Below the pieces are notes generated by a model, which made no database searches, was not told the DNA's origin, and saw only the letters and a list, made by a program, of their open reading frames with translations. From Clostridia bacterium (lineage in GTDB: Bacteria; Bacillota; Clostridia; Oscillospirales; Ruminococcaceae), in NCBI GenBank assembly GCA_021152595.1, contig JAGKVC010000001.1, forward strand, positions 7,380-71,379: a stretch of DNA of 64,000 nt. Direction: 5' to 3'. The position numbers and the translations under genes are program-made. Positions 6,181 to 26,990 of the stretch are shown here, piece after piece (position 1 is the first letter of the stretch; each line of letters begins with the position of its first letter).

Positions 6181-6297
6181 AACGCCCTCCCGAACCTACC
6201 GCAAAGGAAGAAGCCGTGATGAACCTCCGTGAATCACGCATTTCAAAAAACACAGGCAAATTTCACTGACAATTAAAATTGGGAAAGGATGTTAATT

Positions 6298-10054: not shown

Positions 10055-10066
10055 TCTGATCGCCTC

Positions 10067-10759
10067 CTAGGTGTGATCCTTTAGCTGATAACCCCTGGAG
10101 ATGACTGTCCGGATCTGCTGCCCTGCACTGCCGAGCGCCTTGCGCAGCTTTTTGATGTGCGTATCGACAACGCGGTCGCTGCCGAAGAAATCACTGCCCC
10201 AGATGCGGTCAAGGAGCTGGCCGCGCGTGACAACCCAGTCCCTATGCTCCATCAGATATTGCAGCAGCGCAAATTCCTTTGCTGCAAGTATCACGGGCTG
10301 ACCGTTCGCCGTGACAGCGAGTGTCAGCGGATTGAGCGTGATGCCGCCGCAGACAAGTTCGCTGCGCAGGATCGTTCCCTTTGCGCGCTTGAGCAGCGCC
10401 AGTACCTTTGCATAGAGCGTTGCGAGCGAAAACGGCTTGACCACATAATCGTCGCAGCCGAGCGTATAGCCGTAAAGCACATCCTCCTCGCGTGCGCGCG
10501 CCGTAAGAAAGAGCAGCGGGATATCCGATACGGCACGGATGCTGCGGCAGATCGAGAATCCGTCCAGATCAGGCAGCATGACATCCAGCAGAATCAGATC
10601 ATATTCGCCGCTGCGTGCGGCATCAAGCCCGTCTGCGCCGTTCTGCACGGTATCAAGCTGACAGATGTTGTCCGGCTGCGCGGAAAAATAATCTGCGATC
10701 ATCCGGCAGATCTGCACATTGTCCTCGACCAGCAGAATCCGGTATGTCATTTGCCTCAC
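10067..10759 (-). CDS. OmpR/PhoB-family response regulator
   Basis: Receiver motif DLILLDVMLPDLDG with KP in VVKPF. Winged-helix output carries VDTHIKKLRKAL. The gene lies 12 nt upstream of the HK gene. Confidence 0.9.
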   Translation of the reverse strand: MRQMTYRILLVEDNVQICRMIADYFSAQPDNICQLDTVQNGADGLDAARSGEYDLILLDVMLPDLDGFSICRSIRAVSDIPLLFLTARAREEDVLYGYTLGCDDYVVKPFSLATLYAKVLALLKRAKGTILRSELVCGGITLNPLTLAVTANGQPVILAAKEFALLQYLMEHRDWVVTRGQLLDRIWGSDFFGSDRVVDTHIKKLRKALGSAGQQIRTVISRGYQLKDHT

Positions 10760-10973: not shown

Positions 10974-11017
10974 GGGGCGCTGCCCCATACCCCGCCAAAG
11001 GGATGCTATCCCTTTGG
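10974..11017. repeat. Double palindromic (hairpin) element abutting and terminating the truncated sortase ORF
   Basis: The two hairpins are GGGGC-GCT-GCCCC (10974-10986) and CCAAAGGGAT-GCT-ATCCCTTTGG (10995-11017, 10-bp perfect arms). The sortase stop codon lies in the second loop. Confidence 0.6.
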
Positions 11018-11581
11018 AATCCCACTATAAGCAATCTCTGTGCCGTCAATGATCTCGATATACGAAACGGCAAAGGGATATGCGGTACCCTGCGTATCCG
11101 TGAAGATGATCGTATCTCCGGCATTGAGCGTTCCGATTCTGCCGAAATGCGCCGGATAATTATGCGCGGCGATGATCAGATCGTTGGTTCCTGCACTGCC
11201 GCTGACTCTGCACGGAGACTGTTTCAGCGCCGGATAGCTCCAGCCGCTCTGAACCGGAAGCTCCAGTTCCAGTGCCGGAATTGACAGGTATCCGCAGTAT
11301 GCCGAATCCCCGAGCAGAATATCGGCAGGCGCTTGCGGTTCCTCCGGTTCAGCCGGTTCATAGCGTGCAAAGAGATCCTCAGTCTGCGGCACGGCTGTCT
11401 GCTTTGGCGGCTCGGGATCTGCCGGCTGTTCCGGTATCTGCTCCTTGAGCGCTTCCATGGCGGTATCTGCATGCTCCGCGGCGGCCTTTCCCTCGCGGAG
11501 ATTGTGGATGCAGAGTCCGCCTGCTGCAAGGAGCATCAGAATCCCCAGCAGGACCGGTATTTTCCAGAGATTATTCTTCAT
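11006..11581 (-). pseudogene. Sortase, C-terminally truncated (catalytic TLxTC Cys and Arg missing)
   Basis: It has an N-terminal TM and the motifs GYLSIPALELELPV and LIIAAHNYPAHFGRIGTLNAGD (His motif). The ORF stops ~40 aa after the His with ...YSGIPKG*, and no downstream frame continues a sortase. Confidence 0.7.
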
Positions 11582-12560
11582 TGTCTTTCTTTCCTGTTCT
11601 GGCGGATATGCCGATGCCGATCAGCAGCAGACCGCCGACCGAGAGCGGCAGAACCGACCACCAGAGCTGTCCGGTCTGGATGAGCTTTGCAGGTTTTTTG
11701 ACCTCCGCAGTGGTCGTTGCCGTCGTGGTGACGGCAGGCGGTGCGGTCGTGACCTTCGGTGTATCCTGATAGGTATTCCGGATCAGATACTGCTGGCTGT
11801 TGTAGTCGATCATCACCTCGTAATGCGCCGGTATTTTCCGCTCGACGACAGTCCATCTGGACGCAGTATCAAGCGTTTCCCAGCGGTATTCCCAGTTGTT
11901 GCTTTCATCCAGCGTCACGGTTTCGCGCAGTACGCCGTTCTCAAACAGATCCACTGTGATATTGACCGGTCTTGCGTGATTGGCGTCGTCGTCATCCACC
12001 CAGACCTTTCTGACGATATATGCCTTATCGGCATTGCTGCGGTGTTCCGCATAGAATTTCGGGAATGCATCATAGCTCATACCGGTATCGCTGCCGAGAA
12101 TCTCCAGCAGCAGCGCAGAGGGATAATAGCAGATGCTTCCGATCTGAAGCGGCTTGCCGACCGCAAGATACAGACCGTTATCCAGTCCCTCAAAGACCAG
12201 CTCACCGTTGGAATCCGTGCTGCCCGCTGCAATCGGGGCAAGTCCGGCTGCCGTCACATAGCTTTCCAGTGTCTTTGCGGCGGTATCCACAGCCTCAGTG
12301 GAGAGGTCGCCGAGATCCAGTTCGTATTCAGAGAGCGCAGGGATGAAATTGACCGTATGATCCTGCCGCTCGCCGATCTGAAAGAGCTCCCACTGCACAC
12401 CCTTGAGGATGATCTCATCCTGCGTGCAGGTGAGCGTAATGCGTTTATCCGCGGCGGCTTCTGCGGTCCTGCTGAAGCAGAGCGGCGCGATGAAAAGCAG
12501 TCCGGCGCTCAGCAGCAGTGCCGCCAGCCTGTTCAGTTTTGTTTTCTGCATGATATTCAC
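11571..12560 (-). CDS. CnaB-domain cell-wall-sorted protein (minor/basal pilin candidate)
   Basis: It has a signal peptide and a CnaB pattern (VRKVWVDDDDANHARPVNITVDLFENG...NNWEYRWETL...ERKIPAHYEV). The C-terminus is KLIQTGQLWW + TM + RTGKKDNEE. It overlaps the downstream sortase remnant by 11 nt. Confidence 0.8.
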   Translation of the reverse strand: MNIMQKTKLNRLAALLLSAGLLFIAPLCFSRTAEAAADKRITLTCTQDEIILKGVQWELFQIGERQDHTVNFIPALSEYELDLGDLSTEAVDTAAKTLESYVTAAGLAPIAAGSTDSNGELVFEGLDNGLYLAVGKPLQIGSICYYPSALLLEILGSDTGMSYDAFPKFYAEHRSNADKAYIVRKVWVDDDDANHARPVNITVDLFENGVLRETVTLDESNNWEYRWETLDTASRWTVVERKIPAHYEVMIDYNSQQYLIRNTYQDTPKVTTAPPAVTTTATTTAEVKKPAKLIQTGQLWWSVLPLSVGGLLLIGIGISARTGKKDNEE

Positions 12561-12596
12561 CGTTCCTTTCGGTTCTGTCCGGCGGGAAAGCAGCCG

Positions 12597-13928
12597 TTAT
12601 GATCCGGAAATCTCCGAGCCTGCGTCGCTGACATAGAACGAGATCTGGATACCGTCCTCAAATGCAAAGAGATAAATCGTCATGCCGGAGATCTGCTGCA
12701 CCTCCCATGCGCAGTAATCATACTGTTCATCGGCAGGTGTTCCGTAGATATCTGTCAGGGCGTTCTGCCAGTCTGTATAATCGGAAAGATTGCTGTCGAA
12801 ATAATTGATGCCGACAAGTCCGAGACTTGTAAAGCACAGAACACAGTCGCAGTCCTTTTTGAGATACTGCACATTCTCATATTCCATGTCCAGCTCCCAC
12901 GGCTCGCCGGGTTCCTCGATGCGGTATTCCCAGAGCTGTGAAAAGCTGCGCATTTTCTCGCGTTCTTCATTCGGGCTGCCGTAAAACTGCAAGCCGTTCA
13001 GCAGGAAATCGCGCGCCTGTGCCTTGCTCCATTGGGATCTGGGCTTCGGCGCAGCGGTTGTCGTGACGGTCTTTTCCGTGGCCGCTGTCGTGCCGGTCGA
13101 AGCCGGATGATCGGTTTGACCGGTTGTTCCGGTTACGGCAGTTGTTGCTGTTTCTCCGGCAGGATCCGGATTTTCCGGCGCGGCTGCCGCGGTGACGGGT
13201 GCCTCCGGTGCTGCATTTGCCGCATGCTCCGGCTGAACCGGATTCTGCGCCTGCTCTGCGGCTTCCGTCTGCACGGATTCGGCTGCCTCACGCTTTTTGG
13301 TTTCCTTCTCAACGGGTACAATCGGCATCCGCAGCTCCGGTGTCGGGAAGCTGCGCTCCCTTGCCTTTTCATAGCTTTTATCGGGCGAATCCGCAGTTGC
13401 ATAGATCGAAATTTGTACGCCGTCTGCCAGATTGAAAAGATAAACGGCGGTATTGCTGCCGAGCGGATCGTCATACCACGATGCGATGCCGCTGCCTTCC
13501 TCTGTCGGCAGACCGTATGCGTTTTCGAGCGTCCCGAACCATTCGCGGAAGCTCTGATGCCTTTCGGTGTCGTGGTAGTTGAAGCCGATCAGTCCGGAAT
13601 CCGTAAAGCAGAGCGTCAGGTCACAGGTCTGCCCGAACAGCTCAGCCGATGCATAATCAAGCATTTTCTGCGCGACATTCTGATCGGCATTCTCGCGCTC
13701 CGCAATCAGCTCATATGCATCAAGCGCAGATTTGACATCGTCATATGCCGCAAACCATTTCAGCCCGAGCAGGGGTGCATTGTCTTTTCCTGTACCGTCT
13801 GCGCAGCCCGAACAGAGCAGCAGGAGCGCTGAAATACAGATGCACAGGAACAGTGACCGCCGGAGCGGCATTGTTCCTGTCTGTATCGGTTTATTCGATA
13901 TCAGATGATTGTTTCTCATGTTTTTCAA
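12597..13928 (-). CDS. Lipoprotein with two paralogous ~120-aa domains joined by a Pro/Ala/Thr-rich linker (function unknown)
   Basis: Lipobox LLLCSGC. Internal repeat CDLTLCFTDSGLIGFNYHD...VYLFNLADGVQISIYA versus CDCVLCFTSLGLVGINYFD...IYLFAFEDGIQISFYV. The likely true start is Met at 13871. Confidence 0.6.
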   Translation of the reverse strand: MKNMRNNHLISNKPIQTGTMPLRRSLFLCICISALLLLCSGCADGTGKDNAPLLGLKWFAAYDDVKSALDAYELIAERENADQNVAQKMLDYASAELFGQTCDLTLCFTDSGLIGFNYHDTERHQSFREWFGTLENAYGLPTEEGSGIASWYDDPLGSNTAVYLFNLADGVQISIYATADSPDKSYEKARERSFPTPELRMPIVPVEKETKKREAAESVQTEAAEQAQNPVQPEHAANAAPEAPVTAAAAPENPDPAGETATTAVTGTTGQTDHPASTGTTAATEKTVTTTAAPKPRSQWSKAQARDFLLNGLQFYGSPNEEREKMRSFSQLWEYRIEEPGEPWELDMEYENVQYLKKDCDCVLCFTSLGLVGINYFDSNLSDYTDWQNALTDIYGTPADEQYDYCAWEVQQISGMTIYLFAFEDGIQISFYVSDAGSEISGS

Positions 13929-14796
13929 AATCTCCGGATGGCAGCTTTGCGGTAATGTATTTGTCGATTCGGATGATGCGCTTGTTTCTGTTGAAGATCG
14001 CCGAGACGATTCCCATGAGGATCAGCACAATGACGAACACCACAGGAATCACTGTCATGCGGTCGAGCTGAAGTGCATCCGCAGGTACTCTGATATGCCG
14101 GTCATAGATTGTGTCGATCCGGTGTGCGCGGATCAGCAGCCGGTGGGAGTTGACGCCGTAGGGCGTGCAGGTCATCAGCGTGACGTAATCCTTCTGCGGA
14201 ATGATCGAAAGCTCCTCTGTATGATCCGGCAGAATGATGAGGATTTTCTCCACCTCGTAGGTCAGGATATCATCGAGGACATTCACTGTGAAGATATCGC
14301 CTTCAACCATGCGGTCCAGATCAGTGAACAGCTTGGCGGAGGGCAGTCCGCGGTGACCGGAAATCACAGCATGCGTATCAGCACCGCCGACCGGCAGCGA
14401 GGAGCCCTGAATATGTCCTGCGGCAACCTGTAATACGCCTTCCTCCGTGCCGTGATAGATCGGCAGCTCGACGCGGATTGTCGGGATTGAAATATATCCC
14501 ATGACGCCTGTGCCGGATACATTCAGCAGATCGTCATAGCCGCTGAGCTTGTCAAAGTTCGCAAACGGCGCATGAAGCTGAGCGAGCTGCTTGTTATACT
14601 CTCTTGCCGCTTCCCAGAGCGCTGCGGTATCGTTCGGTGCGATGGACGCGACAGTTTCCTTATACGATGCAACCGAGTGGGACGCCATGTTCCGGTTCCA
14701 CCAGTTGCTGAAGGTCGGATAAAGCATCACGGAGAGGCCCGCAAGGAATATGACCAGAAAGATCGCAGGTATGATTTTGTCGCGTATCTTCTTCAT
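13891..14796 (-). CDS. srtC: Class C (pilin-polymerising) sortase
   Basis: Motifs GYISIPTIRVELPIYHG, AVISGHRGLPSAKLF and TLMTCTPYGVNSHRLLIRAHR, with N- and C-terminal TM helices. Confidence 0.9.
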   Translation of the reverse strand: MKKIRDKIIPAIFLVIFLAGLSVMLYPTFSNWWNRNMASHSVASYKETVASIAPNDTAALWEAAREYNKQLAQLHAPFANFDKLSGYDDLLNVSGTGVMGYISIPTIRVELPIYHGTEEGVLQVAAGHIQGSSLPVGGADTHAVISGHRGLPSAKLFTDLDRMVEGDIFTVNVLDDILTYEVEKILIILPDHTEELSIIPQKDYVTLMTCTPYGVNSHRLLIRAHRIDTIYDRHIRVPADALQLDRMTVIPVVFVIVLILMGIVSAIFNRNKRIIRIDKYITAKLPSGDFEKHEKQSSDIE

Positions 14797-14893: not shown

Positions 14894-16636
14894 TTATACT
14901 TCTTCTTCGCGCGTCTTCTTCTTGGAGACGAGGTAGACGCCTGCGATGCCTGCTGCCACGCCGCCGCAGAGGACGAACATCAGGGTGCCGATGCCACCGG
15001 TGGACGGGAGGGTGGAGCCTTTCTTATTCTCGATCTCGTTATCAATATTCGTGCTATTAAGATTGAGTGCGGCAGTAATGGTATCTTCGTTTTCTTTATG
15101 CGTTGCACTGATCGTAATCTGGATATCTTCGCACTTGTTGTAGCCGTCAGGAACCGTAGTTTCCTTCAGCGTATAAGCACCTGCATCGAGACCGACGATA
15201 TTGAACTTACCTGTCTCAGAACCAGCAGCCTCGCCATGACCGGACTTCATTTCTTCAGCAGTCTCACCGCTTGCAGTCGGACGGTATGCGCCCAGATCCG
15301 CATCATAAATCAGACTGATTTCAGCATTGCTTGCATTATAGAGCTTAAATCCGGCATTGGGGAGCGGATCACCCTTTTCATCGACCTTGATATTATCGAC
15401 CTCATATGTGAACACCCAAACATAATCGTCCGGTGTTGTACCCATTTCACCCTCGCCGCCTGCATTCGGGTTGTTGGAATACTCGAGGTTCACCTTGTTG
15501 ACGTTGTTATAATCCGCTAAAACAGAATCTTGGCTCGCCTTTTCTACAGCCGCATTCGCATTCAGGTGAGCAGAGTAGATGACCTCAATCGTTGTTGCAT
15601 CGTCAGTCAGATCAGCGTCAAACTTCTTGATATCATCAATCGTGATCGTAAGATTACCGCCGCCGAGTTCAGTTGCCGGTACTGTCGGCTCAGTCAGCTT
15701 ATAACCATTCGGGTTAGAATCTGCATTATAGAGGTCAATGGTTGTGCCATTAACCTTAACGCTTACGATATCCTCATAGGTAACACCGTCAGAGAGCGTA
15801 TCGTTGAACTGAATCTTGTAGGTCTTGTATGCACCATAATTCGCATCAGCCTCAAGTGTCGCAGTCAGCTTGAACTGGAAGGACTCATTGATTGCGTGGT
15901 CAGCCGTCTCGCCCCAGCCGTCTGTATCTGCATTCGGATCCCTGTCAGCAGCTTCATCCTGAACCTGCTTATCAACGGTAGGTGCGGAGTGCTTGGCGTC
16001 CACATTGATCGGTTGATTTGCGCCGCCTGCTACTTTCACGATGAATCTCGTCTTTGCACCGGAGTTAGGATTGTCACCAAGACTGTCATTGTTAGCATCA
16101 GGATTCACAGGAGCTGCGGTGTCCATGATGAGGTAGTAACCGTCAGGAAGAGCCGAAATCGTATTTTCGTTCACTACACCGGAAGTCTGAGCTTCTAAGT
16201 TAGCTCCGACGATTGCAGCAAATGCCTGCGTCTTCTCCGAATCATCGGCGAACACAGCAGTGGGAGAATCGCCCGTCGTCTTAGAGCCCAGAACCTCCGC
16301 AACGCCCCTCGCACTTGTTACGGTCTCAGCAGGGAACAGACCGTAGAGTGCATTGCCTTCAGCGCCGGATGCATCATGGAGAGCAGCCAGAATTGCATCA
16401 CCGTCAACGCCATCGCCCCAAGTAATATCATTCAATGTTTCGCCGGTAAAGTTGCCCTTGAAAATCTGATATGCTGCGTAGGTGTGTGTTGCTTTGTCTT
16501 TATTGGTTACAGTAATGCTGTTGCCGTTCTCCTCTGCCGTTGCGGCACCTGCGGAAAAACTCATAGCCGGAACAGCCATCGTAGCTGCCATTGCCATTGC
16601 TGCGATCATAGCAGCGATTCTTCTTGCCTTTTTCAT
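14894..16636 (-). CDS. Major (backbone) pilin, LPXTG-sorted
   Basis: Signal peptide MKKARRIAAMIAAMAMAATMAVPAMSFSAGAA, E-box-like YTLKETTVPDGY, and C-terminus LPSTGG + TM + KKKTREEE. It lies immediately upstream of the class C sortase. Confidence 0.85.
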   Translation of the reverse strand: MKKARRIAAMIAAMAMAATMAVPAMSFSAGAATAEENGNSITVTNKDKATHTYAAYQIFKGNFTGETLNDITWGDGVDGDAILAALHDASGAEGNALYGLFPAETVTSARGVAEVLGSKTTGDSPTAVFADDSEKTQAFAAIVGANLEAQTSGVVNENTISALPDGYYLIMDTAAPVNPDANNDSLGDNPNSGAKTRFIVKVAGGANQPINVDAKHSAPTVDKQVQDEAADRDPNADTDGWGETADHAINESFQFKLTATLEADANYGAYKTYKIQFNDTLSDGVTYEDIVSVKVNGTTIDLYNADSNPNGYKLTEPTVPATELGGGNLTITIDDIKKFDADLTDDATTIEVIYSAHLNANAAVEKASQDSVLADYNNVNKVNLEYSNNPNAGGEGEMGTTPDDYVWVFTYEVDNIKVDEKGDPLPNAGFKLYNASNAEISLIYDADLGAYRPTASGETAEEMKSGHGEAAGSETGKFNIVGLDAGAYTLKETTVPDGYNKCEDIQITISATHKENEDTITAALNLNSTNIDNEIENKKGSTLPSTGGIGTLMFVLCGGVAAGIAGVYLVSKKKTREEEV

Positions 16637-16735: not shown

Positions 16736-19700
16736 TCATTCATTCAACCACCTCCGGCGTCTGTAGGCTGCGTATCCGGCTGCTGCAAGAAGGATCATGA
16801 TGCCGCCGGTATAGTAGATTCCTTTGACTCCGCTGCCGCCTGCGACAGGAAGTCCTTTGATTGCTTTGTTTTTGACAGTCAGTACAGGCGGATCGTCGCT
16901 GTCAACGGCTGCGCCGCCGCTGTAATCAACCGCGATATACTGATTGCTGTCTTCCTCCTGGATGTAGTAGATGTAACGGTTTCCGTTCGGGCTTACCCGC
17001 GGAAGATTCGGTACGGTTTCTGTCCAATCGCCATCTGCTGTGAGCCAGATCGTCTTGACACATTCGATCTTGTTCGGATCTGCCGGAAGCGGTCCGACAT
17101 TGACCAGATATGTCACCGTATCGCCGTTGACATTCGCGGTGATTGTTGCCGTACCGAAGTGCTTGGCTGTTACATTGCCGTAGCGATCGACCGACGCGAT
17201 ATCGGGATGATCGGAGCTCCATTCGGTAACAGCGACTTCATCGCCGCTCTGATATGCACGCAGCGGCAGGATTTCGTCCAGCAGCAGATCGTGCGGATCG
17301 GTCCGGTCTTCGGAGTGAATCTCAGTACCTTCGTAGGTGCGTACCGTGAAGCTGTGCGGTTCGCCGTTCGGGCTTGTGACGGTCACTGTCACGGGTTCGC
17401 TGATGACTTCATCCGATCTGACTGTGATGGTTCTGTCGTCCAGCGTCCAGTTGATACGCGAATCTTCACATGCAACTGTAAAGTCGCCTGTCAGATATGT
17501 TTCAATCTCAACTGTTCCGGAGCTGCCTGTTCTGAACGAGACCGAATCGGTGTTGAGCCTGAAATCCACGACGTTGACCGTGAATTCACCGGTTTTTCCG
17601 CCATCGGGTTCTGTGGATCGGTCGGTACCGGTAATGGTGTGCGTTCCGCGGCTGTCAAAGCGGAATGTGAAGGTGTTACCGCTGGAAGCGGTCGGCGTAA
17701 TGGTTTCGCCGCCGTCTTTCCATGTAATATCACCGGTATTTCCGCTGACATTTACGGTGCAGTCCTGATTGGTGAAGACTGTCTGTTCGGTCGGGGTGAC
17801 CTTGAAGGATGTTGCCATATCTCCATAAAGGTAGATATTTGTTACCATTAGTCCTGCCGGATCACCTAATTGAATTGATTTCATAACGACGCTTCTGATA
17901 GTAGAGGCATTGTCCAGTTCCCATACTAAATACTTTCCATGCATTTGAGAACTGCTCGGCTGAACACTTGTCCACCAGTTTCCATTAACAATATTGCCAT
18001 AGTTTTGATCTGTCAGGAATAATGTCATACCGTTTTGAACCGGTATTTCGTTGAACTCGAGAACAACTTTTGTTACATTCTCAATCAACGATTGTCCGTC
18101 AGTGCTATAGGCGGACACTTGATAGACATGCTCATTATTACTGGTGTCATTACCTTGATTGACGTTGGGGATTGTTAATAAACATTTTCCCTCAATCTGA
18201 TAATCGCCGCTTGCCCCGAGCAACCGGATCGGTGTACTCTTCACCGCCTGAACTTCAAGCGTTTCAGCGAGATCGACTGCTTTCGAGAGCCGCAGCGCGC
18301 GGGTTCTGGTTCTGGGGGATGCGGAAACGGTTGTATCCGCTGCACTGTTGAAGACCGGCAGATTTGCGGCTGCCCAGTTCGTGCTGACTGCCTTGATCCG
18401 AGCCGGACGCGGTGTCTGCGGCGATGCTGCGGACTGTACAGCCTGCGGCTGCCGGTCGTCCGTATGGCAATCGCTGCGCCAGTCCAGTGCCGAGGATTCG
18501 TTTACATCCGAGCCGCACATATTCGCGTCATAGAAGTAGAGCGAGTATTGCAGCAGCTTGGCGTAGTTTTCATTCGGATTGTCTGCCGCTGCCGTACCGT
18601 TTCCGCCGCCGTATGTCTTTTTGACGCCGGCATCCGGAACACTGGATGCGATATCCGGATCTGTGATTCCGGTCTGGTAGAAGTGATACAATCCTGCTGC
18701 CGCTCCGACAAGTCCTGCATTGTAATCGAGCGCGACCTCATTGCACTGGTAATCGGATCTGAGATCCTGATAGGATCCGTTGGAATTTGTCGGACCGCCG
18801 ACCAGCGCGCCGAGCAGTACATGCTCTGTCGGAAGATTGTCAGCTTCCGTCTGTCCGGAGTTCGTACCGGAAGCTGCTCTGTGATGCGGATTCTTTGGCG
18901 AATTCGCTGCAAAGCCGGTGACGAAGCAATGTGCGGCTGCCGAACCGACTCCCTGATCACCGAGGATGTATTTCATCTGGTTCTTTGCCCATGCTTCCTT
19001 GTCGATTTCGCTTTCGGGATACTTGGAGGCGATCAGTGCAGCGAGCTGTGCGCCGCAGTTGTATCTCGCCGAGCCCCATCCGTCAACGTAGTAATATTCA
19101 TCGGACTTGCAGTAGTCATTCAGCCAGGTTCGCGCGTCACCCCACGATTGATTGATTTCGCCGTTCATGATTGCCGCTGCAAGACCGACTCTGTTCCAGT
19201 TTAGCGTACTCCAGATGCCGGCATTCGGTCCGGCTGTATGGCTGAGATCGGTTTTGTACTGTTCCTCGCCGGTAGCTTTGTAGAGCCACGCTGCTGCCCA
19301 GTCCAGATCGTCCTGCTTTTCTTCCGATGTATAGAATTCATAATCGGTTCCGGTTTTGCGGTTGACTCCGTATTCATTCAGCGCCGGTTTTTGCTTTGCA
19401 AATTCGTAGAGCTTTTTTGCTCGCTCGAGATATGCATCTGCTTTCGGATCCGTCGGGAAATTGACCTTATACTGTGCAAGTGTCGCTGCATATTCTGCTG
19501 CGATATCACCGCCGCTGTCGCCTCTCCAGAAGAGCTGATCTGTTCTTTCGCCCTGAGCTTCCGGAGCGCCCCAGTAATCGTGATCCGTCTGACCGTCGCC
19601 CTTTTGTACAAGGAGTTCCGTGATGTTTCCGTCTGCATCGGTTCTGGCAGAATCATAGAAGAAATCAGCAAATCGCTTTGCGATGATCTTGTAATGCTCT

Positions 19701-20476
19701 GTCTGACCGAGGTTATCGTAGCTGTCCTTGAATTCATTGTAGCTCCAGCCCAGCATGGATGCGGTGTAGCCTTGCGGCAGACCGAACATCACATGGTCGC
19801 CGGCATCGTGGTAGCCGCCGGAAAGTGCGGATTCTTCCTCAACGCGGTACAGCTTGACCTTGACCTCGTCCACGCTCGGATCATTTTCCCACTCCTTCAT
19901 GACTTTCAGGCTGCCGATATCGGGAACGTTTCTGATTGTCATTGTCTCGCCGTTGAGCTGTTCCTGCGTCCTGCCTGCGGTGTTGATTGTGTTCGAGTCC
20001 GTTCCGATTTTCCATCCGACCGGCACCGAAACCTCGCGGATCCGGAATTCCTTGCCGGCAGGAAGATCTGTGAACTGTCCCTTCCAATCGCTGCCCGTAA
20101 GCAGCAGTGTTTTTGCCGAGACGGGGATCCAGCTGCCGTTCTGCTTGATTTCAAGCATCACGGTGATCGAAGACGGCTTGCTGAGCTCATCACTGGTGTT
20201 ATTGTCGTAATCCCAGACTTTTTTGGCGTTCAGCTTCACAGTCTGCATGGTGTTGGTGACTGTCAGCTGATTGCCTTCGCGCTGGTATGCGGTGTCATAT
20301 CCGAGGTAGGGCGTTTCTTTGACATAGTAGTAAAGCTCTTTGTACTCGTTGTCAACGAGCTTGAATGCTTCGAGCTTCTCCCATGTGCAATTCCAGCCGT
20401 TTTCCTCATTCAGTTTCGCTTTGCCGGTCTGCTCGAGATCGTCGTCCCATGTCTCTGCCCATGTTTCAATCGGCAC
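16736..20476 (-). CDS. C-terminal 1,246 codons of the pilus tip adhesin: CnaB domains, permuted GH9, jelly-roll-like module, Ig-like/Big_2 modules and an LPVAG sorting signal. It has no signal peptide of its own.
   Basis: It is in the same frame as ORF 20531..23782 and separated from it by a single TAA. GH9 motifs GGYHDAGDHVMF, NPHHRAASG and DYQCNEVALDYNAG. Big_2-like TEWSSDHPDIASVDRYGNVTAKHFGTATITANV. C-terminus KGLPVAGG + TM + RRRRW. Confidence 0.85.
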   Translation of the reverse strand: MPIETWAETWDDDLEQTGKAKLNEENGWNCTWEKLEAFKLVDNEYKELYYYVKETPYLGYDTAYQREGNQLTVTNTMQTVKLNAKKVWDYDNNTSDELSKPSSITVMLEIKQNGSWIPVSAKTLLLTGSDWKGQFTDLPAGKEFRIREVSVPVGWKIGTDSNTINTAGRTQEQLNGETMTIRNVPDIGSLKVMKEWENDPSVDEVKVKLYRVEEESALSGGYHDAGDHVMFGLPQGYTASMLGWSYNEFKDSYDNLGQTEHYKIIAKRFADFFYDSARTDADGNITELLVQKGDGQTDHDYWGAPEAQGERTDQLFWRGDSGGDIAAEYAATLAQYKVNFPTDPKADAYLERAKKLYEFAKQKPALNEYGVNRKTGTDYEFYTSEEKQDDLDWAAAWLYKATGEEQYKTDLSHTAGPNAGIWSTLNWNRVGLAAAIMNGEINQSWGDARTWLNDYCKSDEYYYVDGWGSARYNCGAQLAALIASKYPESEIDKEAWAKNQMKYILGDQGVGSAAAHCFVTGFAANSPKNPHHRAASGTNSGQTEADNLPTEHVLLGALVGGPTNSNGSYQDLRSDYQCNEVALDYNAGLVGAAAGLYHFYQTGITDPDIASSVPDAGVKKTYGGGNGTAAADNPNENYAKLLQYSLYFYDANMCGSDVNESSALDWRSDCHTDDRQPQAVQSAASPQTPRPARIKAVSTNWAAANLPVFNSAADTTVSASPRTRTRALRLSKAVDLAETLEVQAVKSTPIRLLGASGDYQIEGKCLLTIPNVNQGNDTSNNEHVYQVSAYSTDGQSLIENVTKVVLEFNEIPVQNGMTLFLTDQNYGNIVNGNWWTSVQPSSSQMHGKYLVWELDNASTIRSVVMKSIQLGDPAGLMVTNIYLYGDMATSFKVTPTEQTVFTNQDCTVNVSGNTGDITWKDGGETITPTASSGNTFTFRFDSRGTHTITGTDRSTEPDGGKTGEFTVNVVDFRLNTDSVSFRTGSSGTVEIETYLTGDFTVACEDSRINWTLDDRTITVRSDEVISEPVTVTVTSPNGEPHSFTVRTYEGTEIHSEDRTDPHDLLLDEILPLRAYQSGDEVAVTEWSSDHPDIASVDRYGNVTAKHFGTATITANVNGDTVTYLVNVGPLPADPNKIECVKTIWLTADGDWTETVPNLPRVSPNGNRYIYYIQEEDSNQYIAVDYSGGAAVDSDDPPVLTVKNKAIKGLPVAGGSGVKGIYYTGGIMILLAAAGYAAYRRRRWLNE
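18455..19828 (-). other. GH9 glycoside-hydrolase catalytic domain, circularly permuted (domain-level feature inside the tip adhesin)
   Basis: The core GGYHDAGD...NEVALDYNAG...LYHFY occupies ORF residues ~217-600. It is followed, after a ~35-aa linker, by the canonical N-terminal GH9 segment NYAKLLQYSLYFYDANMCGS..LDWRSDCHTDD (residues ~636-674). Confidence 0.8.
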
Positions 20477-20530
20477 GTCGGTCGGCAGTGTACCGTTGGC
20501 ATAGGCTTCCTGCTGTTCCGGTGTCAGTGC

Positions 20531-23500
20531 TTACGTCGAGCGGTAAAGCTCAACTTTAACTTCCCCGCGCAGGAATTCAAAGTTCTCGTCATTCTTCCAT
20601 TCCTTCTGAACCTTGATGTTCACTGGCTTGGAGTCGTTTTTGATTTTCAGTGTGCTTCCGTCAACTTCCATCATGGATCCGCCGAATCTCGGATCATTGA
20701 TATACAGCTGATGAACACCGTACCATGCGCTGTTCCAATCACAGCTAATCGGAAATGTACCGCCGGAAACGGTTGGCATGTCAAGCACTTCTGCTGTGAA
20801 ATCAGATTTTACAGTAAAATACAGATCATCCGGCTGTGTGAACGGAGTTCCGTCGCCCGGAGCCGGTCTTTCCGTTTCCCGCAGGAAGTAAGTCCCTGGA
20901 GTCAGGTAGCCGTCGCGGACATAGGGGCTTGTCTCCGCCGTTTCAAGGTCGAAATTGACGCTGCCGGTTTCGTCGGTTGTGAGATCGCTCTTGATGAGCG
21001 TGCCGTCCTGTGCGTACAGATCGAATTTCGCATTTGCAAGCGGTGTATCCGGATTCGCGCCCGCTCTGCCGTCATACTTATACAGGCTGAGCTTCATGCC
21101 GTAGATCGTTTGGTCAACCATCTGGATTGTCGCAGGCAGCGTATATGTTTGTCCGTTATACGTGAAACTGCCGGTTCCCTTGTCCCAGATGATCGTGATC
21201 GGATCGGCCCGCTCATATCCTGCCGGTACTCCGTTTTCTTCTTCTTCTGTGAAGGTGTACTCGCCGGTTTCCAGCTTGGTGAAGTCGATCAGGCAGGAAT
21301 CGGAGGTTTCCGAATCCCATGTCCAGCCGACGTCCTCACCGGTGAAGACGTCCTCACCGGTGAATGTGATTGTCGCACCCTTGAGCGGTTTACCGAGTTC
21401 ATCGACCTTTTCAAACAGCAGTCCGGGCCGGTTCTCGAAATACGGGATGTTCTCCGGCTGCGGAAGCGGCATGACCATCAGCGAGAGGGGATCGTAATAG
21501 AAGTGTTCGTCGATCACCTGTGCTTTGTTCAGATCAATCTGAACCGGTGTGCCGTCAATTCTGGAAACAGCGTCAACATAGTACTCACCCTTTTCGTTTT
21601 TCAGGATTGAGAGCTGATATTTGTTTTCGCCGTTTACCTTAATGGTTCTTGTCAGGCCGTTATCACCCGAATCTATGACGGAGAACTGAATCGTCGGGAT
21701 CTCCGCTCCGGATTCGCTGCCCGAATTGAACACTCTGAATGCAATGGTGTAATCCACATTGTTCGGCGTTCCGTTCACGCCGAACTGATGGACCTTTTCG
21801 GTGACATCAATCTGATAATATTTATCAGTCTGGATGTACCGGGCCGGTGCTTTTTCCTCGCGGATGATATAGGAGGAATTGAACGTCGGGTAGATCACCG
21901 TTGGTGTTGGTTCCTCCGGTTCCTCGGTCTGTTCAGCTTCTGTTTCAGGCAGTGCAGATGTTGTTTCCGTTGTCGCGGGTGCCTCCGGCGGAGCATTCGG
22001 ATCGTCTCCGCCTTCGGGTTCATCCGGCGTTTCCGCCTCGGCGGCGGTTTCTGTTACAGTGGTTGTCGTCGTGGTGGTTGTCAGCAACGCCGTGGTATAG
22101 GTTTCGGTATAATCCACTTTCAGCGGAACCGGAACATATACCGGCTGATCCTCTTTACTCAGCCATCTGTAAACAGCCGCTGCGGTTGTTCCTTCTTCAG
22201 CCTCGTAGATTTCTTCCAGAACGAAATGTGCGTTTTCGAGCCGTGTGGTCGTGCCCTCAACGTACTTTTCGACCGGAACCGCATATCCGGTATGCAGGCC
22301 GATGATATCAGCACTGCCGCGGTACGGTCTGTAGCCGAATTCAAGGCCGCCGTCAAAGGATTTTGCGATCATTGCACCGGAAAGGTGACCGTAGCACTTG
22401 TCTGTCGGTGCTGTGACATCCGCCTTCGGTGCAAGAATTGTGCCGTTGAAGTTGCCGCTGAGCTTTCCTGATGTTGCTTCATAGAAGTTATAGAGGACGC
22501 GCTCAGAAAGGATATTGTTGTTGCTGTCATTATCTGTAAAGGAGTTTCCGGTATGGACATTGGAAAATGTTTCTCCGTTGAATGTTGCATCAATCGTACC
22601 GCCGCTGCTTTCCAGAATATCGAATGCCTTGCCGCCGACATTGACAACAACGCTTGCATTCTCCGGAATGTTGGTGAATTCAACGCTTCTTGCGTTGCTC
22701 GGCCATTCATTCAGCGTGAAGTAGACCGTTTTTACATTTGTATCCGGCGCTTCAAATTTGATATGATTTCCCTCGATCACTGCGGGGATTCCCTGCATGA
22801 CTGCGAGCTGTTCGGATCTGCCGTCAACCTTGTCATAGACGTAGTCGATCAGTTCCTTGATGTATTGGAACTGATACATCTGCGCGAGCAGGTTGACATC
22901 GCCCAGATAGCTGTGATGATTTTCGCAGTCTGCATCGGTGCCGGGATATTCAACCACTGCGCTGGCAGAATACGGAACATCCTGCTGACTGTACTGATCA
23001 TACCAGCGCGATTCGTCGAGCTTTGCAGGATTGATCAGCAGCTTCTTGTACATATCATCTTCCGGATCATATACAACTGTATTACCGTTGCGGTGCCAGT
23101 TTTCGGAATCAGCTTTACCGGATTCTTCGTCATAGTTGCCGGTTGAAATGGTATTGATGCGGTAGAGCTTTCCGCCGCAGATGAGATGTGCAAAACCGGT
23201 TCTCTGATTGTCTTCGGTATAGCTGTCTGTCGTGGGCATCGGTTTCAGATGTGCAAAGTCGCCGCTTCCGACCTGATAGTTCCATACATTGTTGAATGTC
23301 AGGTCTCCGCCGATTGCAAGTCTGCCCTCGGCATCCGCGTGATAGACTGTGAAATTGCCCTTGGTCAGCGCACAGAAGTCACTGGCAAGACCTAAGAAAT
23401 ATTCATCCTCTGCCTTTTTCAGTGCATCCTCCAGCGTTTGCGCACCGTTGAGCCATTGGGTTCCGGTGCCTTCTCCGAAGAGGAGCGTCAGCAGCTTGGC

Positions 23501-23782
23501 ATTTTCCGGGCTCCAGACTGTGCCGTTCACGATATTGTCGTCTGCGCGGCAGGAATTTGAAACAACCGTATCAGCAGGAATGCTTCCTGCATCGTATGTG
23601 CCGCCGGAAGCATCCGGCTCGGTGCTTGCGAGCGGCCGCACCATACTGATGCCGGGAACCGCCGTCAGAAAGGGAACTGTCACTGTTACCAGAATTGCCA
23701 TTGCAGTCAAAAACGCTGCTGTCCGGTGATTGTGTCTCTTTCGCGTTACTGTCTCATAGATGTTGTTCAGACCGTCTTTCAC
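20531..23782 (-). CDS. N-terminal 1,083 codons of the pilus tip adhesin: signal anchor, choice-of-anchor-A-like domain, Thr/Pro/Glu linker and SpaA/CnaB-type domains. It ends at an in-frame TAA inside a CnaB domain.
   Basis: The N-terminal TM is AAFLTAMAILVTVTVPFLTAVPG. FTVYHADAEGRLAIGGDLTF is the choice-of-anchor A signature. The ORF ends VNIKVQKEWKNDENFEFLRGEVKVELYRST*, i.e. the first two strands of a CnaB fold. Confidence 0.85.
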   Translation of the reverse strand: MKDGLNNIYETVTRKRHNHRTAAFLTAMAILVTVTVPFLTAVPGISMVRPLASTEPDASGGTYDAGSIPADTVVSNSCRADDNIVNGTVWSPENAKLLTLLFGEGTGTQWLNGAQTLEDALKKAEDEYFLGLASDFCALTKGNFTVYHADAEGRLAIGGDLTFNNVWNYQVGSGDFAHLKPMPTTDSYTEDNQRTGFAHLICGGKLYRINTISTGNYDEESGKADSENWHRNGNTVVYDPEDDMYKKLLINPAKLDESRWYDQYSQQDVPYSASAVVEYPGTDADCENHHSYLGDVNLLAQMYQFQYIKELIDYVYDKVDGRSEQLAVMQGIPAVIEGNHIKFEAPDTNVKTVYFTLNEWPSNARSVEFTNIPENASVVVNVGGKAFDILESSGGTIDATFNGETFSNVHTGNSFTDNDSNNNILSERVLYNFYEATSGKLSGNFNGTILAPKADVTAPTDKCYGHLSGAMIAKSFDGGLEFGYRPYRGSADIIGLHTGYAVPVEKYVEGTTTRLENAHFVLEEIYEAEEGTTAAAVYRWLSKEDQPVYVPVPLKVDYTETYTTALLTTTTTTTTVTETAAEAETPDEPEGGDDPNAPPEAPATTETTSALPETEAEQTEEPEEPTPTVIYPTFNSSYIIREEKAPARYIQTDKYYQIDVTEKVHQFGVNGTPNNVDYTIAFRVFNSGSESGAEIPTIQFSVIDSGDNGLTRTIKVNGENKYQLSILKNEKGEYYVDAVSRIDGTPVQIDLNKAQVIDEHFYYDPLSLMVMPLPQPENIPYFENRPGLLFEKVDELGKPLKGATITFTGEDVFTGEDVGWTWDSETSDSCLIDFTKLETGEYTFTEEEENGVPAGYERADPITIIWDKGTGSFTYNGQTYTLPATIQMVDQTIYGMKLSLYKYDGRAGANPDTPLANAKFDLYAQDGTLIKSDLTTDETGSVNFDLETAETSPYVRDGYLTPGTYFLRETERPAPGDGTPFTQPDDLYFTVKSDFTAEVLDMPTVSGGTFPISCDWNSAWYGVHQLYINDPRFGGSMMEVDGSTLKIKNDSKPVNIKVQKEWKNDENFEFLRGEVKVELYRST

Positions 23783-23826: not shown

Positions 23827-24402
23827 TTAAGGTTTGCCGAATGACCGGAGCGGCCAGATCTTCAGGAAGACCGCGCCGATGACATTTTCCTCTGAGATGC
23901 ATCCCACCGAGGTCGATCGGCTGTCCACCGATACGGCACGGTGATCGCCCATAACGAAGTACCTGTTTTCCGGTACCTGATAGGGGAGGTCAATGTCACA
24001 TTCTCCGTAATCCGATTCCTGTATGTAGGGTTCATCGAGCGGCTCACCGTTCAGGATCACGGTGCCGTCCTCCTCGATGTCGATTTTATCACCTGCTGTC
24101 CCGATTACCCGTTTCAGCAGAACCTTATTATTATAATAGAATGCAATGATGTCCCCGCGCTGCACGTTCCGCAGTTTATTACAAAGCAGAATCTCGTCAT
24201 TTTGCAGGGTAGGCGTCATGCTTGCGCCTGTTACGCGCAGCACCGGCAGCAGCATCGTGGAGATCAGCACCGCGGCAGCCGCGGCGACGATCAGCGAGGA
24301 AACCGTATGCAGGACGGATTTTGCAAAGCGCTCGCCGTATTGAAGGCGCCGCATTTCCTCTGCGAGCTGACCGGTGGTCGGTAAGTCTCTTCTTTCCTTC
24401 AT
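23827..24402 (-). CDS. lepB: Signal peptidase I (pilus-operon associated)
   Basis: Ser box GASMTPTL, Lys box LLKRVIG, and VMGDHRAVSVDSR. It has an N-terminal TM. Confidence 0.85.
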   Translation of the reverse strand: MKERRDLPTTGQLAEEMRRLQYGERFAKSVLHTVSSLIVAAAAAVLISTMLLPVLRVTGASMTPTLQNDEILLCNKLRNVQRGDIIAFYYNNKVLLKRVIGTAGDKIDIEEDGTVILNGEPLDEPYIQESDYGECDIDLPYQVPENRYFVMGDHRAVSVDSRSTSVGCISEENVIGAVFLKIWPLRSFGKP

Positions 24403-26178: not shown

Positions 26179-26226
26179 CTTCGGGAAATGTGACTGCTAC
26201 ACAAAATGCGGCATCTTCTATAGCAG

Positions 26227-26270
26227 AAAAAGCACCCGTTTACTGGAGTTTCCGGTAAACGGGTGCTTTG
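26227..26270. terminator. Bidirectional intrinsic terminator
   Basis: A 13-bp perfect stem AGCACCCGTTTAC / GTAAACGGGTGCT is flanked by an A-run and a T-run between convergent genes. Confidence 0.75.
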
Positions 26271-26280
26271 ATATCGGATG

Positions 26281-26874
26281 TCAGCGCCGCCGGATATCCT
26301 GATACAGAAATCCGCACTGCGTACAGTACCAGACCAGTCTGCCCATGCGGTACATCGGCATGGTGAAATGAAAATCCCACTCCGGATACTGCCGGAACAC
26401 CATGACGCTGCTGTCGGTGATATACGCTGCAAATGCGATATAGTGCTGCTTGGTCATCGGGTGCGCGGAGAATACATACCATTCGCCGCCGATGTCCTCA
26501 ATTTGCAGCATTTCGTCCGGTGCGGCTTTGCGCAGCTCCATCGGGGAGAGACGGCTGCCGCAGCAGGTCACGGCTGCCTCTGCGGAAGCTGTGATGAGAT
26601 TGCCGCAGGATTTGCATACATAGAATTTGGTCTTTTTCATATTGCCTTTCTCACTTTCCTTTTGTGCGATCTCGCCCGTCAGCAGGACATGAATATCCGT
26701 ATCAAAGACCTCCGCCAGTGCCGCGAGCAGCGATATATCCGGACAGCCGTTGCCGCATTCCCATTTCGACACCGCCTTGTCACTGACATGGATGCGTTCT
26801 GCAAGCCGCTTCTGCGTCATGCCGCGTTCTGTCCGGAGCCGTTTGATCAGATCGCCTGTTTTGCTCTGGTTCAT
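26281..26874 (-). CDS. XRE-type HTH regulator fused to a desulfoferrodoxin-like (desulforedoxin + SOR-like) domain
   Basis: HTH region LIKRLRTERGMTQKRLAERIHVSDKAVSKWE. Then FYVCKSCGNLI..CCG (Cys4), HPMTKQHYIAFAAYI and WYCTQCG. AAGGGGTGA RBS precedes Met 26874. Confidence 0.65.
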   Translation of the reverse strand: MNQSKTGDLIKRLRTERGMTQKRLAERIHVSDKAVSKWECGNGCPDISLLAALAEVFDTDIHVLLTGEIAQKESEKGNMKKTKFYVCKSCGNLITASAEAAVTCCGSRLSPMELRKAAPDEMLQIEDIGGEWYVFSAHPMTKQHYIAFAAYITDSSVMVFRQYPEWDFHFTMPMYRMGRLVWYCTQCGFLYQDIRRR

Positions 26875-26990
26875 GTGATCACCCCTTGTCTTGTTCTGAT
26901 TCCATGATACCATATGTGCGCAGGCTTGTCAATCCACGCTCCGTAGAGTGCAGACAGAAAGACAGCCCTCCGAGCGGAGAGCTGTCCTGT

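Follow-up and report, generated by a model that had tools for sequence, protein, structure and literature searches.

A circularly permuted GH9 domain nested in a split CnaB domain of a predicted pilus tip adhesin from the Ruminococcus flavefaciens group

Introduction

The subject of this study is a gene for a very long surface protein encoded on the minus strand of a 64,000-nucleotide stretch of DNA from a Clostridia bacterium of the family Ruminococcaceae (GenBank assembly GCA_021152595.1, contig JAGKVC010000001.1, positions 7,380 to 71,379), which as a whole is referred to as the window. A preliminary description of this stretch had flagged the open reading frame (ORF) 16736..20476 as a pilus tip adhesin with a rearranged glycoside hydrolase domain; this ORF exists on the minus strand, and residues are numbered on its 1246-amino-acid (aa) translation throughout. 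Taking all evidence together, the best explanation is probably that a circularly permuted GH9 domain has been kept under selection inside a split CnaB domain of a sortase-pilus tip adhesin in bacteria of the Ruminococcus flavefaciens group.

GH9 constitutes one of the main cellulase families of bacteria and plants and, to our knowledge, its topology has so far been treated as fixed. R. flavefaciens, in turn, is a reference organism for the biology of cellulosomes.

Circular permutation of the GH9 domain

The encoded protein matches the GH9 profile of Pfam (PF00759) with 312.8 bits at a gathering cut-off of 27.7, and its best match in the PDB, as obtained with phmmer, is 2yik (E-value 7.6e-83). 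In place of the canonical colinear order of a GH9 domain, profile positions 1-40 were found C-terminal to positions 51-443. When the two pieces were scanned apart, the catalytic core corresponded to positions 51-443 of the 444 positions of the profile (282 bits), while the relocated segment, hereafter termed H, corresponded to positions 1-40 (34.0 bits, with the cut-off at 27.7). Searches against the PDB sequences gave the same picture, in that query residues 634-677 aligned with residues 36-80 of 2yik (46 bits) and query residues 218-611 with residues 110-529, and the swapped pattern was repeated with Cel9M (1ia6). The ranges of the core and of H are complementary and each of them is present once, with neither a second core nor a second H in the protein. 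The two profile matches in swapped order that the preliminary description had anticipated were thereby recovered far beyond chance, and no colinear alignment was obtained; the relocated segment, which had been placed at residues 636-674, is present as well but starts one residue later, at 637.

The permuted domain retains the features by which the family is recognized. D224, D227 and E580, which had already been named as the retained catalytic residues, are present. In an alignment of 121 GH9 sequences they occupy invariant columns, of which there are 51, all conserved in the window protein. Moreover, H preserves each of the 14 positions that are invariant in the helix-1 segment of 33 GH9 sequences. 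At the level of sequence, the GH9 domain is circularly permuted: its first ~40 residues, comprising the helix 1 region, now stand 33 residues past its last helix. This swapped order is a topological variant and provides no ground to exclude the domain from GH9.

The site of the helix-1 move was located by comparison with the colinear relative P0123, in which a helix that lies in the linker downstream of H (RALRLSKAVDLAE), and is also conserved in R. flavefaciens FD-1, sits directly after the GH9 domain. In addition, the first part of the linker between the core and H (GVKKTY, within residues 604-636) is homologous to the post-GH9 linker of the colinear relatives. Helix 1 has left the interval between the CnaB strand and the GGYHDAGDH motif and has re-entered the post-GH9 linker between GVKxxY and the conserved helix. 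Within the gene, DNA traces of an origin by duplication and deletion amounted to short repeats at chance level, from which the mechanism is not readable.

A frameshift, or a second GH9 copy hidden downstream of H, was considered and rejected, as numerous stops interrupt both alternative frames, neither of which encodes anything resembling GH9, and the linker is under purifying selection in the annotated frame. The Arg/Ala/Ser-rich stretch that follows H is not out-of-frame junk either, because the ratio of nonsynonymous to synonymous substitution rates (dN/dS) in this frame is 0.14 relative to the closest orthologue, P0122.

Independent permuted copies and selection

The same order with the same breakpoints occurs in four sequences, namely the window, P0122, R. 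flavefaciens FD-1 and the rumen metagenome contig L083. P0122 is an intact protein of 2444 aa from an independent metagenome contig of the ENA database (locus L001) and is 92.6% identical to the window protein. The FD-1 isolate encodes the permuted GH9 in an intact ORF of 2470 aa (contig ACOK01000091.1; locus L003, 4484-11896), while L083 is partial but reads through the whole shared region in permuted order. Hence, misassembly is ruled out as the source of the rearrangement, and the search for homologous permuted GH9 domains that had been proposed at the outset yielded three further sequences with identical breakpoints, one of them from a cultured isolate.

Selection was assessed by comparing the window with FD-1, a pair for which synonymous sites are saturated (proportion of synonymous differences, pS, 0.6-0.9). 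In this comparison dN amounts to 0.148 in the core and 0.160 in H, as against 0.38 in the linker of residues 604-636, 0.65 in the post-H linker, 0.79 in the next module and 0.35-0.5 in the stalk domains. Amino-acid identities follow the same course, with 76% in the core and 82% in H, 57% and 28% in the two flanking linkers, and 29% in the next module. H is evidently under purifying selection rather than debris, and it is not a relic, because it represents the best-conserved 40 residues of a protein of 2400 residues. The rearrangement is taken to have occurred once, in the common ancestor of the window lineage and R. flavefaciens FD-1, and to have been kept by purifying selection since.

An exhaustive representative search with the linker, H and the next module brought up many giant nested relatives and no more permuted clusters, the matches to helix 1 all lying in colinear proteins. 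A homologue search with the post-GH9 region returned only noise of the Big_2 type and missed even the cluster of the query itself. Likewise, the nearest relatives of H and of the core were compared with respect to a single origin as opposed to a chimera; the two rankings are uncorrelated (Spearman -0.02), with H too conserved across the family to be informative.

The 2470-aa protein of FD-1 was absent from the results of both protein-database searches in spite of its 56-76% identity to the query. In the public draft annotation of FD-1, the gene may be divided or lack an annotation, which could also be the reason for its absence from the papers on FD-1 carbohydrate-active enzymes. For the window protein, an exact-sequence look-up of contigs found no record.

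The split CnaB domain and its colinear relatives

The third CnaB domain of the protein, CnaB3, is represented by two separated halves. With the Pfam profile Cna_B (PF05738, cut-off 22.3), the N-terminal half alone gave no match and the C-terminal half alone gave 24.7 bits over profile positions 34-75, whereas the spliced halves reached 34.5 bits over positions 2-75. In addition, a profile built from nine proteins after splicing of their halves aligned with the intact neighbouring CnaB2 domains in hhalign (probability 95.8%, E-value 6.8e-9), and did so colinearly across the splice point. Lys194, Glu1174 and Asn1203 correspond in position to the isopeptide triad of CnaB domains and do not vary among 13 nested proteins with inserts of 613-1419 residues; the K-x-W and LYR motifs of the N-terminal half are invariant in all nested homologues. 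Judged by these matches, an insertion of ~927 residues (213-1139) interrupts CnaB3 behind its second strand, as the preliminary description had claimed for the host domain, and the insertion comprises the GH9 catalytic domain, the conserved helix, a beta-rich module, Ig-like modules and a Big_2 domain.

For the beta-rich module, residues 759-886, the Pfam scan gave only weak matches below E 0.001, none of them significant; an equivalent module occupies the same position in P0002 and P0124, and a carbohydrate-binding role of the module is possible.

Nesting of this kind extends to proteins with GH9 domains in the usual order. Colinear relatives that combine the CnaB nesting with a sorting signal are P0002, P0004, P0005, P0082, P0123, P0124, L052 and the full-length P0214, P0216, P0309 and P0315. 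Their common plan consists of a signal peptide, a choice-of-anchor-A/pAdhesive_15 domain, a stalk, two CnaB domains, two CnaB3 strands, an insert of 613-1419 residues that opens with GH9, the rest of the CnaB strands and, last, a sorting signal. Among the 326 GH9 proteins collected here, a crude motif screen identified 27 nested ones, namely 24 colinear proteins, two permuted proteins, which both belong to the cluster of the window, and one of unclassed order; being set by this screen, the count is a lower bound (at least 24 colinear examples). The view of the GH9-bearing tip protein as a singular device therefore needs to be divided: the nesting of GH9 in tip adhesins is widespread, while the permuted order is limited to a small clade.

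One of the colinear proteins, P0214 (P0123; locus L163), is near-identical to the FD-1 tip protein at its N- and C-termini, with the last 40 residues matching exactly, while its interior contains a different, colinear GH9 domain (~41-45% identical) and different modules. Judging from this pair of proteins, enzyme cassettes seem to be swapped on one and the same pilus-tip scaffold among closely related strains.

Gene model

The 1246-aa ORF was initially taken for a complete protein. It is in fact the 3' half of a 2349-codon gene that is cut by an in-frame TAA: there is no signal sequence at its start, and the ORF directly upstream, 20531..23782 (1083 aa), lies on the same strand and in the same frame, with the TAA at 20531-20533 as the sole separator between the two. 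The GTG start of ORF 16736..20476 is an artefact, the real gene is 16736..23782, and the signal peptide resides on the upstream ORF. Read as a whole, the gene specifies a signal peptide followed by a choice-of-anchor-A/pAdhesive_15 domain, a SpaA-like stalk, CnaB1, CnaB2 and the split CnaB3 that encloses the insert, and it ends with a sorting signal. The profile matches of the 5' ORF are to PF20597 (125.9 bits), PF17802 (60.1 bits) and TIGR04215 (97.3 bits).

The interrupting codon is peculiar to the window: it corresponds to GAA (Glu) in P0122, and FD-1 and L083 read through the position with intact ORFs. The window copy also lacks a module of 99 residues at ~20670-20680, ~45 codons upstream of the TAA, which is present in both P0122 and FD-1. 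The proximity of the stop codon and the lost module suggests decay of the window copy or an assembly problem, and this copy may be a recent pseudogene or contain a base-call or sequencing error. If the TAA is real, the window copy yields no full-length protein.

Related tip-adhesin genes are also broken in metagenome assemblies, by frameshifts or runs of N (L002, 4890-7591; L163, 9000-9900), and the frequent fragmentation of these very long genes may be technical.

The predicted pilus operon and its neighbourhood

Read along the minus strand, the operon comprises genes for signal peptidase I, the tip adhesin, the backbone pilin, a class C sortase, a 443-aa protein, a small CnaB protein and a second sortase (Table 1). 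The order of signal peptidase, large adhesin, backbone pilin and class C sortase is conserved, besides the window, in L001, L002 and L163. The tip protein combines a signal-like N-terminus, encoded by the upstream in-frame ORF, with a C-terminal LPVAGG motif, a hydrophobic span and RRRR. This context, with its class C sortase, backbone pilin and signal peptidase I, fits the earlier assignment as the tip adhesin of a sortase-assembled pilus, and gene 16736..23782 would encode such an adhesin in a bacterium of the R. flavefaciens group. The small CnaB protein of 329 aa (11574-12560) ends in LIQTGQ followed by a hydrophobic span or anchor and is a candidate for the basal pilin.

The sorting motifs at the end of the tip proteins differ between relatives, with LPVAGG in the window, LPITGG in FD-1 and the orthologues, and MPSTGG, MPSAGG or LPSAGG in other relatives. 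They also vary within the operon of the window, where the tip adhesin bears LPVAGG at 16835-16852, the backbone pilin LPSTGG and the small CnaB protein LIQTGQ, a variation that may point to separate tasks of the two sortases.

Table 1. Features of the predicted tip-adhesin gene and of the pilus operon, in the order in which they are read along the minus strand; residues refer to the 1246-aa ORF, except for the 5' ORF.
Feature	Position in the window	Strand	Remarks and evidence
Signal peptidase I (S26)	23827..24402	minus	directly upstream of the tip-adhesin gene; same position in L001, L002 and L163
Whole tip-adhesin gene	16736..23782	minus	~7 kb; 2349 codons including one internal TAA
5' ORF, 1083 aa	20534..23782	minus	N-terminal signal sequence KRHNHRTAAFLTAMAILVTVTVPFLTAVPGISM; choice-of-anchor-A/pAdhesive_15, residues 130-489; SpaA-type stalk; first strands of CnaB1 from ~20623
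In-frame TAA inside CnaB1 (LYRST*ALTPEQQ)	20531..20533	minus	splits the gene into ORFs of 1083 aa and 1246 aa
Remainder of CnaB1 (to LTVTNT, residue 76) and intact CnaB2 (residues 80-184)	19925..20476	minus	Pfam Cna_B 59.2 bits, 3 stretches
CnaB3, N-terminal half SLKVMKEWENDPSVDEVKVKLYRV, residues 189-212; candidate isopeptide Lys194	19841..19912	minus	Pfam, profile alignment
Junction EEESALS, residues 213-219, from CnaB strand to GH9 core	19820..19840	minus	7 residues
GH9 catalytic core, residues 220-603 (Pfam profile 51-443); Asp224/Asp227 (DAGD), Glu580 (NEVALDYN)	18668..19819	minus	Pfam 282 bits
Linker from core to relocated segment, residues 604-636	18569..18667	minus	33 residues; dN 0.38 relative to FD-1
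Relocated N-terminal GH9 segment H NYAKLLQYSLYFYDANMCGSDVNESSALDWRSDCHTDD, residues 637-674 (Pfam profile 1-40)	18455..18568	minus	phmmer, Pfam
Post-H linker, residues 675-758	18203..18454	minus	dN/dS 0.14 relative to P0122 in this frame
Predicted helix RTRTRALRLSKAVDLAETLEVQAVK in the post-H linker, residues 722-746	18239-18313	minus	72% identical to FD-1
Beta-rich module after GH9, residues 759-886	17819..18202	minus	strands in the AlphaFold model, low confidence
Ig-like modules and one Big_2, residues 887-1135	17072..17818	minus	Big_2 25.7-27.4 bits, weak PKD match; all-beta in the AlphaFold model, predicted local distance difference test (pLDDT) 55-75
CnaB3, C-terminal half, residues 1136-1204; candidate catalytic Glu1174 (YIYYIQEE), candidate isopeptide Asn1203 (LTVKNK)	16865..17071	minus	Pfam, profile alignment
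Sorting signal LPVAGG (residues 1209-1214), hydrophobic span, RRRR tail, stop	16736..16852	minus	sequence
Major (backbone) pilin, LPSTGG	14894..16636	minus	PF16569 50.5 bits, PF17802 49.3, TIGR04226 61.2 (fimbrial isopeptide domain)
Class C (pilin-polymerising) sortase	13891..14796	minus	NF033745 268.2 bits, cut-off 160
Remaining operon genes: 443-aa protein without family match; 329-aa CnaB protein; second, divergent sortase	11006..13928	minus	profile scans

The pilus operon is flanked by genes for dockerin-bearing enzymes, as expected for a cellulosome-producing Ruminococcus. In L001, the locus of the P0122 strain, an IS605 OrfB/TnpB (Cas12f-like) gene is situated at 5091-6407, between a dockerin-bearing pectate-lyase-like gene and helix-turn-helix and flavodoxin genes; between the corresponding genes of the window (~26200-26990) there is no ORF of comparable size. 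Two further observations concern more distant parts of the window. On the plus strand at 769-7647, a second pair of surface proteins is encoded, the first of 1803 aa (Listeria-Bacteroides repeat and DUF5979/DUF7601) and the second a DUF7601 protein of 452 aa, and this pair adjoins a two-component system at 8147-10759 on the minus strand. Moreover, a single plus-strand ORF of 1353 aa (46879-50940) combines a complete large chain of carbamoyl-phosphate synthase (residues 1 to ~1041) with a complete diaminopimelate epimerase (two DAP_epimerase stretches, to 1346), and represents either a real CarB-DapF fusion or the result of a lost stop codon.

Structure models and alternative explanations

Two AlphaFold models were computed, both with alignment rows in natural order only: a focused model of residues 212-770, based on 121 rows of which a single informative one covers H, and a model of the full insert based on 8 rows. 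In the focused model, the GH9 core reached pLDDT values mostly above 90, and Foldseek gave template modelling (TM) scores of 0.71-0.77 to 2yik and 1ia6. These models and several other results include points that weigh against a permuted, selectively maintained GH9 domain on a pilus tip, and they are taken up here together with the alternatives to which they lend themselves.

As to the location of the protein, the LPVAG motif departs from LPXTG by an Ala in place of Thr, and the backbone pilin scored 68 bits with NF033902 (SpaH/EbpB), below the NCBIfam cut-off of 95. The protein might be a sortase-anchored adhesin or enzyme of the cell wall, attached to peptidoglycan through, for instance, the second sortase, instead of a tip subunit; besides the low score of the major pilin, the difference between the LPVAGG of the tip protein and the LPSTGG of the backbone, as well as the presence of a second, divergent sortase in the operon, speak in favour of such an arrangement. 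We nevertheless consider it unlikely, given that the order of signal peptidase, large adhesin, backbone pilin and class C sortase is kept in four loci, that the class C sortase is matched strongly (268 bits against a cut-off of 160) and that the backbone pilin bears a fimbrial isopeptide domain (TIGR04226, PF16569). Furthermore, in characterised pilus operons such as that of RrgA, it is the large adhesin, with a functional domain nested in it, that forms the tip subunit.

With respect to the fold, H was predicted as helical but not docked, with a pLDDT of ~35 in the focused and ~25 in the full-insert model (range 25-40) at an alignment depth over H of about nil, and the core attained its pLDDT above 90 in the absence of H. 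The full-insert model was poor altogether (mean pLDDT 47.5), with strands predicted for both CnaB halves at a pLDDT of ~50-70 (about 55). In addition, the comparison with the close strain P0122 yields only a moderately low dN/dS, 0.48 overall and 0.61 in the core. Given the unplaced segment and the confident core, it is conceivable that the relocated segment no longer completes the barrel and that the core works, or merely binds glucan, on its own; H would then serve as a spacer or docking element, and the domain would amount to a truncated GH9 or to a pseudo-enzyme accompanied by a relic. This appears rather improbable, since H is as conserved as the catalytic core at a distance where synonymous sites are saturated, while both flanking linkers have diverged strongly, and since H keeps all 14 positions that are invariant across 33 GH9 sequences. 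Moreover, the two pieces cover the profile without overlap and without loss of a secondary-structure element, and the catalytic residues are intact. The failure of both models to place H is what would be expected with only one extra alignment row over it, and the outcome of AlphaFold is uninformative or weakly negative on this point, because the alignment depth over H was essentially nil. By inference, geometry does not limit a return of the helix, for a linker of 33 residues can reach across ~100 Å, farther than a 45-kDa domain is wide. By construction, the new termini of the GH9 domain are adjacent, because colinear enzymes join them with 2-3 residues.

Finally, the rearrangement might have arisen through faulty assembly or as a dead gene decayed in this one genome. 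In favour of this, the window's own copy contains an in-frame stop and a module deletion, and frameshifts or Ns often interrupt related tip genes in assembled metagenomes. We regard it as extremely improbable, as identical order and breakpoints recur in four sequences that were assembled independently, one of them from a cultured isolate. Two complete ORFs (2444 and 2470 aa) are intact, L083 reads through the whole shared region, and every segment is in frame, with dN/dS at 0.14 in the post-H linker. An artefactual origin of the permutation itself is refuted by these four sequences.

Proposed mode of action

For a permuted GH9 domain carried at the tip of a pilus, the following sequence of events is proposed. 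The protein would be exported by means of its N-terminal signal sequence, whereupon the class C sortase would cut the LPVAG signal and join the protein to the first backbone pilin, which would place it at the tip of the pilus. An intradomain isopeptide bond between Lys194 and Asn1203, with Glu1174 as the catalyst, would staple the two halves of CnaB3, and a pulling force would run through the stalk and bypass the enzyme loop. The relocated helix would fold back to its usual place in the (alpha/alpha)6 barrel, and the GH9 domain is predicted to be a complete and active beta-1,4-glucanase. The entry and exit points of the permuted domain would be adjacent, and no more than 7 residues would tether the enzyme to the stalk. 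Combined with the adhesive domain at the N-terminus, such an arrangement could accomplish attachment to fibres and local cleavage without a cellulosome.

Comparison with known systems

The domain shares its sequence family, the (alpha/alpha)6 fold of the core as modelled, the Asp pair of the DAGD motif and the Glu of the NEV motif with canonical GH9 enzymes such as CelT of C. thermocellum (2yik) and Cel9M of C. cellulolyticum (1ia6). It differs from them in that the equivalent of residues 36-80 of 2yik follows the equivalent of residues 110-529, and in that the window domain is devoid of a dockerin or CBM3c and is embedded in the CnaB domain of a pilus protein. A closer resemblance exists to the colinear GH9-in-CnaB tip adhesins of Ruminococcus and Oscillospiraceae (P0214, P0216, P0315, L052), which feature the same overall plan and the same operon. 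In those proteins, helix 1 directly precedes the GG[FY]HDAGDH motif and is separated from the CnaB strand by a linker of 15-45 residues, whereas the permuted clade has a junction of 7 residues, with helix 1 inserted in the post-GH9 linker.

[quoted passage not shown] In RrgA, and by prediction in the window protein, a functional domain is inserted into a beta-sandwich made of two halves; in the window protein the triad Lys194/Glu1174/Asn1203 is conserved, and the bond is predicted. On the other hand, the insert of RrgA is an adhesive domain of the vWA type with ~370 residues, as opposed to ~927 residues here, which contain an enzyme and several modules, and past the CnaB/Ig-like folds there is no sequence relationship between the two proteins.

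A precedent for the permutation is provided by the GH70 glucansucrases and GtfB, which show a circular permutation when compared with GH13 and with GtfC and GtfD, two GH70 proteins that are not permuted (PMC9732880, PMC5388325). As in the present case, the catalytic domain of a glycoside hydrolase has been permuted in nature, and permuted and non-permuted relatives coexist. In GH70, however, a (beta/alpha)8 barrel is concerned and the permutation defines large, old subfamilies, while here an (alpha/alpha)6 barrel is cut after its first ~40 residues in one small clade.

The surface of R. flavefaciens itself offers a further comparison. The scaffoldin ScaE is attached to the surface by a sortase signal (PMC4081043), and the dockerin-borne GH9 enzymes together with ScaE share with the present system the group of organisms, the enzyme family and attachment to the surface through a sortase signal. 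In the tip adhesin, by contrast, no cohesin-dockerin step would be involved, and the enzyme itself would form part of a covalently polymerised fibre.

Novelty and significance

In the literature, we found no report of a permuted GH9 domain and no paper on a pilus-borne GH9, on colinear GH9-in-CnaB adhesins or on the FD-1 gene described here; likewise, the FD-1 genome papers that were consulted make no mention of the FD-1 tip-adhesin gene. Natural permutation of a glycoside hydrolase is already known from GH70, and nesting of the RrgA type is known as well; the permuted GH9 itself is well backed by sequence and evolutionary evidence. In its broadest form, the finding would represent the first natural circular permutation of the GH9 barrel, fixed as a plug-in module whose adjacent entry and exit points lie 7 residues from an isopeptide-stapled stalk, together with active cellulases on pilus tips of the R. 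flavefaciens type that are widespread, independent of the cellulosome and have been overlooked in FD-1; the chance that this holds in its entirety we put at slightly below even.

Since FD-1 is cultured and its gene is intact, enzymatic activity, isopeptide stapling and localisation to pili are directly testable. A GH9 permutant maintained by selection shows at which point new termini are tolerated in the barrel, a piece of information of use in engineering enzymes and in designing domain insertions, and the colinear alleles on the same scaffold constitute a natural control for the permutant. For R. flavefaciens, pilus tip adhesins with an embedded cellulase point to a second, covalent route of enzyme display and fibre adhesion.

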